Below are positions 54,362 to 57,500 of a DNA stretch of 64,000 nt, in pieces. The notes below the pieces were generated by a model. That model saw only the letters and a list, made by a program, of their open reading frames with translations. It was not told the DNA's origin and did not search any database. The position numbers and the translations under genes are program-made. Origin of the DNA: Candidatus Coprovivens sp. (lineage in GTDB: Bacteria; Bacillota_I; Bacilli_A; RF39; UBA660). Numbering within the stretch: position 1 is the stretch's first letter; every line of letters begins with the position of its first letter. Where the stretch lies: assembly GCA_051892935.1 (NCBI GenBank), contig JBJFGS010000025.1, forward strand, positions 80,813 through 144,812, given 5' to 3'.

Positions 54362-54577
54362 CTATCTTTTTTTGGCTTTTTTCTTTTCATCAGAAGTGGT
54401 ATAAGAAGTTACGTTACTATGAACCATTTCTGCAAAAAGAGAGTTTGATATTACTTCATTCATATCTTCACCATCCAAAAGCGAATCAACAAATTGTAAT
54501 TCATCATTTTCATCATACCTTTTAACAATTTTCAATCCTTCTTTTAAAGAAATCAACTTTTCTTTTTCATTACTCAT
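54362..54577 (-). CDS. small acidic protein (71 aa) translationally coupled to the giant ORF
   Basis: ATGA overlap with the stop of 54574..61569. Acidic N-terminal two-thirds, KKKAKKR C-terminus. Confidence 0.5.
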   Translation of the reverse strand: MSNEKEKLISLKEGLKIVKRYDENDELQFVDSLLDGEDMNEVISNSLFAEMVHSNVTSYTTSDEKKKAKKR

Positions 54578-57500
54578 AATGTAACTCCTCCACTCTTTTT
54601 AAGATTCTCTAATTCTAAAACATACTCTTCCATCTTAATAATAGCATCATTTCTTCTTTTCAAAATCAACTCTAATACTTGATCAGCTTTATCTTTACCT
54701 AAAGAAACGGCATATTTTCTAAATAAATCCTTATAATCATCATCACTTAAAAGTTTAACTTTATTTATTGTATCAGTAATAACAGATAAATCAAGATCTA
54801 TTTCTCCGTTCCTATACCTAGTAAATAATATTTGATAAATAGGAATACGATGATTACCATTAGGAGTAAAAGAATAATCTGCATTCAATGTTCTATCATC
54901 ACTTATAAACCTAAACGATTGTTCTTTGTCAATTCCTCTCAAATTATTTGAACTATCTATAATAAAATTTCCAACATAACAATCAAAATTACATAGTAAA
55001 AAGTCAATAACATATTCTCTTAGCAAAGCAGAAGAATAACAATAATCTAACTCTCCACCTTTATTAACCCAATCCTTAAGTACATCAGAATTATCCTCAC
55101 TTATCTCCACTAATTCTTGTTTAGAAAATCTCAATTTACCCCCAATACTCTCAACTCTTACTGAAGTACCAGGAGATAAAAATTCTTGTAATTTAGAAGC
55201 CGCTTCTTGAATATCAGCTCTAAAAGGTTGTAAAGCATAGTTATTTTTATCTACTGCTGGTTTTAGTAAGAAACTATCATCATCAATATCATATCTATAC
55301 ATAATTCCAGACTCTCCCAAATTAGCAGTTTCAAGAGCTACAATTTCTTCTTTAGACATTCCTCTTAAAACAGTTAAAGTTTTTCTAAAAAGACCAATAC
55401 GAGTCAATTCTTTTTTACAGTCAGGTAAATCAACTATTATTTGACAAACAATGCTTTCCATCTCGTATAAAGATTTACACAAATAATCAAAAGATATTTC
55501 ACTATTACGATACTTATCATTCAAAATAGTTAAACAATAATCTACTTTTTCTTTTATACTAACATTTGGATTATTCTCTTGTATCCCATCAAAGAATATA
55601 GAATACATCAACGAATAATTAGGACTAATTTTAAAATCAGCTTTAGCTTTCTTTAAATCTTCCACTTTCTTAGTATCATAAGCATAAACATCAAATTTAA
55701 TAATTGGAACATCAACTCCAAGAAAATCACTAAAATACTTAGCAGCCCTAATTGTAGCCTCATTTGGTACATCACCAACACAAGCCAAAGCACAAGGAAG
55801 CATACCTTCTCTAAAACCAGCTACTTCATTATAAGAACAATGCTTATAACAACTACACTGATTAAGAGCATTCAAATTTGTAAAAGCATTAATATTAGCA
55901 GTTGGTTCAATCTTATAACCACCATGCTCAACAAATAAATCTCTACCATTCATAAAAAGCATAAAACTCTTAGGTAAACTATTAAACAAATAAACAACAC
56001 CATTATTATCTCTATTATTTATAAACCAAAATCCTTTATCGGAAATACTAGATGTAGATAATGTCGAAGCTCCTTCTAACTTAGTCCATAAAGAAGGATC
56101 ATTAATTAACATCTCCTTAAAACCAGACATATTAGTATCATAAGAATAAATCCTATGGACTAAAAAATTAAACTTTTCAGAATTCATTTCAATAATAGTA
56201 ACACCATAAGGATTATTAGGATCACCCTTATCAATACGTTTACTTTTCAAATCCTCAATATTAGTAAGTCTTCCATTAAATTGATAATTATGTAACAATC
56301 TAATCTTAGCAATAATATTTCTCACTTCATCACAATAATCTAAAACTCCTGCATTGTCATTTATAAGTTTAGTCATTAAATCTTTTAATTCATTGATATT
56401 TTGAGATTCTATAATTCTACTCATTAATGTAATAATAGCTACATCTTTCTTATTGTAAAAACATTCTTTAAATATTTGATTAGCTCTTTCCAAACCATAA
56501 CATTCTATAATATCTTCTCGTAAAGTTTTTAGATTTAAATAATTATTTAATTGGAAATTATTAAAATCTTTTGCTAAAGAAGCGATATCAGCATATCCAA
56601 ATAAAGTAGCTAAAACATTCTTAATTTCAGCAATATTATTCGAATTTAATTTAATCATCCAAAAATCTTGTGTTTTCTTTTCATATTGTTTAAGTTCATC
56701 ATATGTTTTAATATCATACAAATTATTGCCTATAATAACTTTTCTAAGATTAGAAATATCAATTTCACTTAATTCATAATTTGAATTACAAATATCAATT
56801 ATTAACTCTTTATACTTATCAAAATTCCTAAAAGCATAATGAACTCTTTTATCATCATTATCAAACAAATTATAACGACAAACAATATCATAATAACTAC
56901 TAAGTAAATTAGCATTATTAGCTTTTATTTCTTTAGATATCACTGAAACAGCAGGTGTATTATATTTAATAACATCAAGTACAAATTCAAGACCAAATAA
57001 CGGATAAATATATTTAACAACATCATAATTAAAAACAGGATTCTTTTCTAAAGTATTTAATTTACCATTAGATTTTAAAATAAATAAAGCATTCTTAAAA
57101 ACAATTTGTAAATCACTATCAAATATTTCAAGATCAATAAATGGTAAAACTGTTACAATCTTTCTGAAAGTAAAACCATTTTCATTAGTCAAATCACTAT
57201 CGTAAGAATTAATAGCATTTGCAAAAACACTTCTAATAACATTATCATTTTTATCTATTAATCTAAAATCCTTCAAATTACTAAGTAAAAAATCAGCAAC
57301 GAAAAAACAATTATTCTTATTATTAATATCAAAATTTGAAAAATGAATAATCTTCAAAACTTTAGAAACCGATAATAAATGTCTATCAATAGTCGAAAAA
57401 TCATCTATATAAGCAAAAGTACGTTCATTCAAAAATTCCAGAGGAAGTTGAAATAAAATTGAAGGAGCAGTTTTTAAAGCAGCCACAACCATTTCCTCAT

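Follow-up and report, generated by a model that had tools for sequence, protein, structure and literature searches.

Kinases of the PI3/4-kinase type carry a catalytic loop of the form D-R-H-x-x-N, and those of the HipA type a loop of the form D-A-H-A-K-N. In the PI3/PI4-kinases a D-F-G segment follows, HipA and HipT have a HipA_N domain and an upstream helix-turn-helix antitoxin, and CtkA of Helicobacter pylori is a stand-alone secreted protein. A different setting is that of the MuF-fused phage head proteins, which carry several enzymes in one polypeptide and whose fused domains are described as travelling inside the phage head and entering the host together with the DNA (Iyer et al., 2017, PMC5512222; PMC9503650; Jamet et al., 2017, PMC5576092). 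Here we have analyzed a stretch of 64,000 nucleotides (hereafter the window) from Candidatus Coprovivens sp. (assembly GCA_051892935.1, contig JBJFGS010000025.1, positions 80,813 to 144,812 of the forward strand), in which one open reading frame (ORF) codes for a giant protein of 2,331 amino acids (aa). A first-pass annotation, made from the sequence, had proposed that positions 54574–55400 (giant aa ~2057–2331, the last ~275 residues) carry an atypical kinase signature of the PI3/PI4K/HipA/CtkA type, i.e., a D-x4-N catalytic loop followed by a metal-binding Asp. We consider it quite likely that this end of the protein is a catalytically active module of the atypical kinase type, its substrate being probably a protein, within an effector-like giant that would carry two enzymes. 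The features on which the argument depends are the following.

54574..61569, minus strand: the giant, a single uninterrupted ORF with ATG start, 2,331 aa
54577..55383, minus strand: atypical kinase-like domain, aa 2063–2331, the last ~270 residues of the giant
55297..55317, minus strand: Gly-rich loop GESGIMY, aa 2085–2091, before the model beta-strand 29–33, invariant in four close homologues
55246..55272, minus strand: FLLKPAVDK, aa 2100–2108, on the model strand 36–42, with the predicted ATP-binding Lys K2103 (codon 55261–55263)
55126..55149, minus strand: SIGGKLRF (contained in GGKLRFSKQELVEI), aa 2141–2148, beta4-beta5 hairpin in the model, with the unconserved K2145
54955..55020, minus strand: REYVIDFLLCNFDCYVGNFIID (with DFLLCNFDCYVGNFIID inside), aa 2184–2205, helix E and catalytic loop, with E2185, D2189, D2196 and N2201 (codons of the predicted catalytic D2196, 54982–54984, and of N2201, 54967–54969)
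54907..54936, minus strand: GIDKEQSFRF, aa 2212–2221, DFG-equivalent segment with the predicted metal-binding D2214 (codon 54928–54930)

The motif strings from which the proposal started (SIGGKLRF, REYVIDFLLCNFDCYVGNFIID and GIDKEQSFRF) are all present where they had been placed, in the C-terminus of the intact ORF. The bare D-x4-N...D motif is weak, at chance level in this protein, because the giant is rich in Asp and Asn (9.2% D, 8.3% N) and contains 21 matches to D-x4-N, eight of the relaxed pattern D-x4-N-x(8,25)-D-x(2,5)-F being found as well. Therefore, the case must rest on conservation and structure.

The domain was modeled with AlphaFold2 on a four-sequence alignment, giving a predicted local distance difference test score (pLDDT) of 76 and a predicted template modeling score (pTM) of 0.77. 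The predicted fold is that of a bilobal kinase, with an N-lobe sheet and helix C, a hinge and a helical C-lobe with the catalytic loop, and its secondary structure elements come in the kinase order (N-lobe strands, helix C, hinge, helix E, catalytic loop). In domain numbering, strands 29–33 and 36–42 open the N-lobe and the second of them carries K41 (K2103), i.e., the conserved Lys stands on the strand after the Gly-rich loop as in the rest of the class. A long helix (54–69) leads to strands 77–81 and 85–90, which form the SIGGKLRF hairpin and end at the conserved Q2151, and then two helices (101–108 and 114–130) precede an extended loop with D134 (D2196), N139 (N2201) and D152 (D2214), the D-x4-N loop and downstream Asp typical of these enzymes. 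The highest fold-comparison scores were obtained with PI4K type II alpha (13.6 and 13.0), followed by CtkA (12.6), HipA (11.4), CotH (11.1), Fam20 (11.0), PI3K alpha (10.9), actin-fragmin kinase (10.7) and MavQ (10.4). In Foldseek the 50 best matches were kinases without exception, with the best TM-scores (0.51–0.54) to CtkA. Thus the fold prediction that had been recommended as a check returned a kinase, and of the same families that had been named from the motifs; the nucleotidyltransferase-like alternative mentioned at the time is not favoured. One detail has to be corrected, since the ATP-binding Lys had been sought in SIGGKLRF. K2145 lies in the beta4-beta5 hairpin and is replaced in the closest homologues, which read IGNGRMTL, IGDSKLKL and LGTGDFRV at this point, and the conserved Lys is K2103 in FLLKPAVDK.

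The first homologue search, a word-index search with the last 682 aa of the giant as query, gave eight metagenomic relatives (six with the broad profile). The alignment of the giant with all of them consisted of two modules, a central block (aa ~1785–1969) and a C-terminal block (aa ~2063–2331), the latter present in three of the eight (P0001–P0003). In these three, GESGIMY, LLKPAVDK, CNFDxYxGNF and G[IV]DKEQ[SA]FR[FY] were essentially invariant. D2196, N2201 and D2214 did not change in the four closest kinase-bearing sequences, and K2103 is likewise invariant in all the kinase-bearing close homologues. We then have the exhaustive HMMER search, with a four-sequence profile against 1.84 billion cluster representatives, which found 927 clusters at E ≤ 1e-3, 511 at ≤ 1e-10 and 148 at ≤ 1e-30. 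Conservation was measured by column over 189 domain hits from 156 retrieved representative proteins, taking the columns with at least 80% identity. K2103 was Lys in 154 of 157 aligned residues. Along helix E and the catalytic loop the counts over the 189 hits were 182 for E2185, 187 for D2189, 183 for D2196, 177 for N2201 and 159 for F2202, and along the DFG-equivalent segment 166 for G2212, 185 each for D2214 and K2215, 176 for E2216, 163 for Q2217 and 160 for F2219. P2236, Y2245, Y2279, Y2286 and R2305-K also reached this level in the C-lobe. An alignment of 25 sequences (A6), with 20–54% identity to the window protein, gave the same positions, with K2103 nearly invariant, and added Q2151, which belongs to the SKQE adjoining SIGGKLRF and is nearly invariant too. 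Hence the motif residues, whose conservation had been put forward as a decisive check, are the best conserved columns of a family of 927 clusters. The catalytic residue set appears from these columns to be the most strongly selected feature of the domain, which argues for an active enzyme and not a pseudokinase.

The family consensus of the catalytic loop is L-x-x-E-x-V-x-D-W-L-x-x-N-x-D-S-H-x-x-N-F ... G-I-D-K-E-Q-x-F, with GGxG at the position of GESGIMY, and as a sequence it looks like a recognisable variant of the PI3/4-kinase and HipA loops. The register of the motifs would be supported by two kinds of sub-threshold matches, one of PF00454 (PI3_PI4_kinase) in two of 26 relatives (E 4.4e-5) and one of HipA_C (E 2e-3) on DEADVREIQKNMVLDWLLSNHDPHTGNF of Mycobacterium phage Onyinye gp16, which is aligned with LLREYVIDFLLCNFDCYVGNF of the window. 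As a separate observation, many large relatives (P0044, P0069, P0093, P0094, P0097, P0106, P0108–P0111 and others) contain, directly upstream of the full copy, a partial one restricted to the C-lobe (profile positions ~111–265), which points to a duplication within the protein or to a pseudo-domain with a regulatory role.

Relatives of the domain were found in phages. In Pfam the relatives have Phage_Mu_F or Phage_min_cap2 at the N-terminus, VG15 also, and sometimes NUDIX, ADPrib_exo_Tox, Rho_N or an intein. When IMG/VR was searched for the pattern [IVC]DKE[QAE][SAG]F[RKS][FYK], 119 matches came out, of which 112 were confirmed as relatives and 80 loci were kept. The kinase-like domain and a MuF-like domain, the latter called with jackhmmer, for which the MuF region of P0031, as verified in Pfam, served as seed, occurred in one ORF (median length 1,140 aa) in 76 of the 80. 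In GenBank, the kinase-like domain was present in 12 Mycobacterium phage or prophage records and was unannotated in every one, the labels of the phage relatives being merely "minor capsid/ADP-ribosyltransferase fusion," "ADP-ribosyltransferase" or "hypothetical." Two of them illustrate the architecture. Gp54 of prophiFSQJ01-1 (L094 2139–5651) is located between the portal and scaffolding genes, combines VG15, the kinase-like domain (aa ~459–709) and ADPrib_exo_Tox, and is annotated as [quoted passage not shown]; Onyinye gp16 (L095 2904–6926), annotated as "ADP-ribosyltransferase," has its kinase-like copy at aa ~190–454. In both, the copy stands between the head domain and a C-terminal ADP-ribosyltransferase (ART). 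From these first phage matches a general association between the kinase-like domain and ARTs of the R-S-E type seemed possible; it was rejected when only 6 of 238 pooled proteins showed it.

The window protein shares with the MuF-fused proteins the kinase-like domain and the logic of a multi-enzyme polypeptide, some of the latter bearing NUDIX or ADPrib_exo_Tox, but it has neither a MuF domain nor phage neighbours. The domain content expected of a MuF toxin or polyvalent protein was found in the phage relatives, whereas DUF4116 is the sole Pfam domain of the window protein. Polymorphic toxin-immunity systems combine an N-terminal trafficking domain with a variable C-terminal toxin, directly followed by an immunity gene. 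In the giant no known trafficking domain or signal peptide was found, some paralogues keep the C-terminal domain and others have lost it or diverged there, and the conserved and coupled ORF downstream is a candidate partner (see below). We found no description of the kinase-like domain in the literature on MuF or polyvalent proteins (including PMC5512222, PMC9503650 and PMC5576092), and the work on MuF polymorphic toxins mentions no kinase (Jamet et al., 2017, PMC5576092). The polyvalent-protein kinase clade of Iyer et al. (2017, PMC5512222), which we compared with the window family by its published description, has, in the final strand of its N-lobe, a conserved Gln that Q2151 would fit. However, that clade is described as devoid of the whole C-terminal subdomain and as found mainly in Verrucomicrobia-Chlamydia and Bacteroidetes (PMC5512222).

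Taking fold and conservation together, aa ~2063–2331 would be a bilobal atypical kinase-like domain of the PI4K-II/CtkA/HipA/CotH structural class. GESGIMY, the Gly-rich loop, would hold ATP together with K2103, the catalytic base would be D2196 in the D-x4-N loop, and N2201 and D2214 (in IDKEQ, the DFG equivalent) would bind Mg2+, so that the gamma-phosphate could be moved to a hydroxyl, most likely of a protein Ser or Thr. A protein hydroxyl is preferred as the acceptor because CtkA, HipA, CotH, Fam20C and actin-fragmin kinase are near the top of the structural comparison and because the phage relatives would act inside bacteria.

A number of observations weigh against this reading. The domain of the window gave zero matches in Pfam, NCBIfam, PHROGs and PADLOC (nor did the last 500 aa of the giant have any in Pfam), and the search of the PDB sequences with phmmer and two profiles returned noise alone (DVL-2, OKP1 and a designed protein). 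The model comes from an alignment of four sequences, a single one of the five models reached a pLDDT of 76 and the rest stayed between 44 and 59, and the Foldseek E-values were weak (best 4.7e-3). Three shorter paralogues with the central ART-like domain (P0004, P0005 and P0008) have no kinase-like domain, and in another two (P0006 and P0007) the C-terminus has diverged so much that the kinase profile no longer matches; with such losses and divergence, the domain must be dispensable in the giant's protein family. In the giant itself no export or packaging signal can be recognised, and its gene is found amid housekeeping genes; the analogy with phage effectors is indirect. In addition, in the giant subfamily Tyr or Phe (D-C-Y-V-G-N) takes the place of the family's loop His (D-S-H-x-x-N), and no conserved helix-C Glu is evident, E2122 being variable and Q2121 invariant among the close homologues.

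These last two features, together with the diverged C-termini of P0006 and P0007, are what could be expected of a catalytically dead pseudokinase that would serve as a scaffold or binding module alone. Yet K2103, D2196, N2201 and D2214 are invariant in the kinase-bearing close homologues and the best conserved residues family-wide, and PI4K-II itself is without that loop His (D-R-G-N-D-N). Given this conservation, a pseudokinase is disfavoured and, to our judgment, extremely improbable. The nature of the top structural match raises a different doubt, also counted among the points against a protein kinase, because PI4K type II alpha is a lipid kinase and the substrate class is therefore not fixed by the fold. 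The domain could be a phosphoinositide-kinase-like enzyme (as PI4K-II or Legionella MavQ and LepB) or a kinase of sugars or metabolites (as Fam20B or the MTR kinase). However, the protein kinases CtkA, HipA, CotH, Fam20C and actin-fragmin kinase scored nearly as high, the best TM-score was to CtkA, the relatives are for the most part phage proteins fused to MuF, whose action would take place inside bacteria, and no membrane-binding segment was detected. Phosphoinositides are moreover rare in bacteria outside Actinobacteria. We regard a lipid or small-molecule kinase as unlikely.

A kinase of proteins being preferred, its relationship with the described families can be considered. Identity was 13–14% with PI4K type II alpha and PF00454, and the D-C-Y-V-G-N and D-K-E-Q of the window differ from the loop and D-F-G of PI3/PI4K; the window domain also belongs to bacteria and phages, and lipid-binding features were not detected in it. 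PF00454 gave no match at E ≤ 1 in the window protein nor at E ≤ 10 in the four close homologues. With CtkA the identity was 10–12%, there was no sequence-level match, and the domain of the window is the end of a giant multi-domain protein instead of a protein on its own. Regarding HipA/HipT, neither HipA_C nor HipA_N was found by Pfam in the window protein or the four close homologues (HipA_C appearing, sub-threshold, in the phage relative alone), the locus has no upstream HTH antitoxin, and its small ORF is located downstream and is unrelated to known families. Since the sequence thresholds of PF00454 and HipA_C were not reached, we have filed it as a separate family: an undescribed one within the atypical-kinase class, absent from the four libraries searched and not a member of PI3/4K or HipA.

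The kinase-like domain is preceded in the giant by a long repeat scaffold and by a second domain.

57433..57573, minus strand: best DUF4116 repeat, aa 1333–1379 of the N-terminal helical repeat scaffold (Pfam PF13475, E 7.9e-20)
55663..56217, minus strand: ADP-ribosyltransferase-fold domain, aa 1785–1969, with invariant H1805, S1838, S1840, N1914-E1915 and R1920

Pfam detected DUF4116 repeats alone, in five stretches of the N-terminal part, and the repeat is also present in the L004 orthologue. Thus the proposed picture, in which a huge repeat scaffold bears an enzyme, was borne out and even fell short, as an ART-like domain comes in between. This central block is common to the nine sequences aligned, in which D1811 and P-x-L-W-x-K-L-x-G-A-x-T-x-S-x-S-x-x-S are invariant too. 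No Pfam ART model matched it. In the fold comparison the central domain scored 8.0 over 139 residues with CteC, and lower with DarT (4.2, 4.0 and 3.4), SopF (3.5) and Tpt1 (3.2), and the invariant residues come in ART-like strand order, H1805 ending the first strand, S1838-x-S1840 lying on a strand and N1914-E1915 preceding another. CteC is a mono-ADP-ribosyltransferase of ubiquitin Thr66 with the motif R65-S97-E220; the central domain has 7% identity with it and, at the first position, where CteC has Arg, its His is invariant and the next residue varies. On the model, an ART fold is probable, and an active ART is plausible. As a side observation, the region just upstream (aa ~1500–1785, window ~56218–57070, minus strand), with motifs such as IYPxxG...LLKY...HxAFxNF, is kept in seven of the eight first-found homologues, those of ~1,000 aa included, and missing in the truncated P0003; it may be a third domain.

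Besides the window protein, 27 cluster representatives, collected by two protein searches, have the ART-like and kinase-like domains in tandem, and seven of them are of similar size (2,235–2,334 aa). With the DUF4116 scaffold, the ART-like and the kinase-like domains in one chromosomal protein, the giant would be a two-enzyme, effector-like machine for the modification of proteins, and the kinase and ART domains may act on a common target. The same proximity suggests another type of relationship. The glutamylase SidJ, which has a kinase fold, inactivates the ART domain of the SidE effectors, and a kinase fold with other chemistry (AMPylation as in SelO or glutamylation as in SidJ) could act here on the neighbouring ART or regulate it: in the giant subfamily the kinase-like domain always adjoins the ART-like domain, and a minority of the phage relatives carry an ADPrib_exo_Tox ART in the same polypeptide. 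We consider such a chemistry highly improbable, and a kinase that phosphorylates proteins continues to be the preferred reading. A paralogue array may exist at the locus of P0007 (L012 1–13117), where five ORFs of ~1,000–1,056 aa and a sixth of 296 aa, all lacking Pfam matches, stand in a tandem row that looks like one.

Downstream of the giant, the order on the minus strand is giant, a 71-aa ORF, a low-molecular-weight (LMW) phosphatase gene and uvrC (52075–53850).

54362..54577, minus strand: 71-aa ORF, its ATG overlapping the stop of the giant (ATGA), product acidic with a Lys-rich tail
53837..54310, minus strand: gene of the LMW phosphotyrosine-phosphatase family (Pfam LMWPc, 3.7e-28)

The small ORF had no match in the precomputed Pfam, NCBIfam, PHROGs and PADLOC results. 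In spite of this, an ORF with its start overlapping the stop of the giant is found in four related genomes, in L004, L006 and L009 with 26–43% identity and in L008 as a 69-aa ORF that was assigned by its position, outside the alignment. One of these genomes (L009) has a different neighbourhood. The loci of kinase-less paralogues L011 and L013 had no recognisable equivalent. The small ORF is thus translationally coupled to the giant, and we propose the 71-aa product as a candidate regulator or immunity partner, which would regulate or neutralise the giant.

The phosphatase is indeed found two genes downstream, as the first-pass annotation had pointed out, and it had been suggested as the logical antagonist of the kinase. 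Giant and phosphatase share a strand, the interval between the small ORF and LMWPc showed no terminator-like site, and the order giant, ~70-aa ORF and LMWPc is kept in L004, L006 and L008. These three, however, share the whole neighbourhood of the window, from Impact_N upstream to UvrC downstream (UvrC-sized ORFs follow LMWPc in L004 and L006), and for this reason are not independent evidence for a pair. In L009, the most divergent relative examined, LMWPc is absent beside the giant, whose gene (2,234 aa) and overlapping ~70-aa ORF are followed by unrelated genes, i.e., an S-AdoMet-lyase-like gene, an unknown gene and a LytR_cpsA_psr gene. Besides, LMWPc overlaps the start of uvrC by 14 nucleotides (53837–53850). 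A TATAAT-like box was seen by eye just upstream of its ATG, although the automated scan did not flag it. With the overlap and this box, LMWPc may share its transcript with uvrC and not with the giant. LMW protein tyrosine phosphatases act on phospho-Tyr, phospho-Arg or arsenate, and the nearest protein-kinase folds are Ser/Thr kinases. The antagonist thus comes down to adjacency, and given the synteny an antagonistic pair is disfavoured and improbable.

Beyond the protein kinase with its candidate regulator, a wider scenario can be drawn, to be taken as tentative and, as a whole, rather doubtful. A family of ~900 clusters of active kinases, mainly MuF-fused, would be packaged, injected and used for host reprogramming, and reduced-genome gut Bacilli would have captured one copy into their conserved chromosomal giant, beside a non-canonical ART of the H-S-E type; both enzymes would modify the same target, and the 71-aa protein would be their inhibitor or immunity factor. 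If the kinase is active, a sizeable kinase family has been missing from the libraries searched, its substrates would reveal which targets are phosphorylated by phages as infection begins, and they would also show why gut Bacilli with small genomes retain a 7-kb gene for a kinase and ADP-ribosyltransferase. In any case, a region that had no family match gains a name and residues that can be mutated (K2103, D2196, N2201 and D2214).

The giant is not a peculiarity of one assembly. The identical protein was found, in the same 11-kb stretch, in the independent public assembly Logan SRR30616808, and orthologues of 2,234–2,342 aa exist in L004, L006, L008 and L009. Carriers among the reference genomes are uncultured gut Bacilli, Erysipelotrichaceae, "Tenericutes" metagenome-assembled genomes and Candidatus Coprovivens (Bacilli incertae sedis), with 50–71% identity over the kinase domain. 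No signal peptide or transmembrane segment was detected in the giant (maximum hydropathy over 19 residues 1.36), nor any known trafficking domain in the Pfam scan. In the window the search for tRNA genes and Rfam families was negative. The giant is surrounded by housekeeping genes (nitroreductase, Impact_N, LMWPc, UvrC and Rnf genes) and the composition of the window is uniform (~25% GC), for which reasons a prophage or mobile-element setting was considered and rejected. Upstream of the giant, beyond the Impact_N and nitroreductase genes, there is a Fic/DOC-domain protein of 405 aa (window 62749–63966, plus strand; Pfam Fic 3.5e-11), i.e., another protein-modifying enzyme near the giant.

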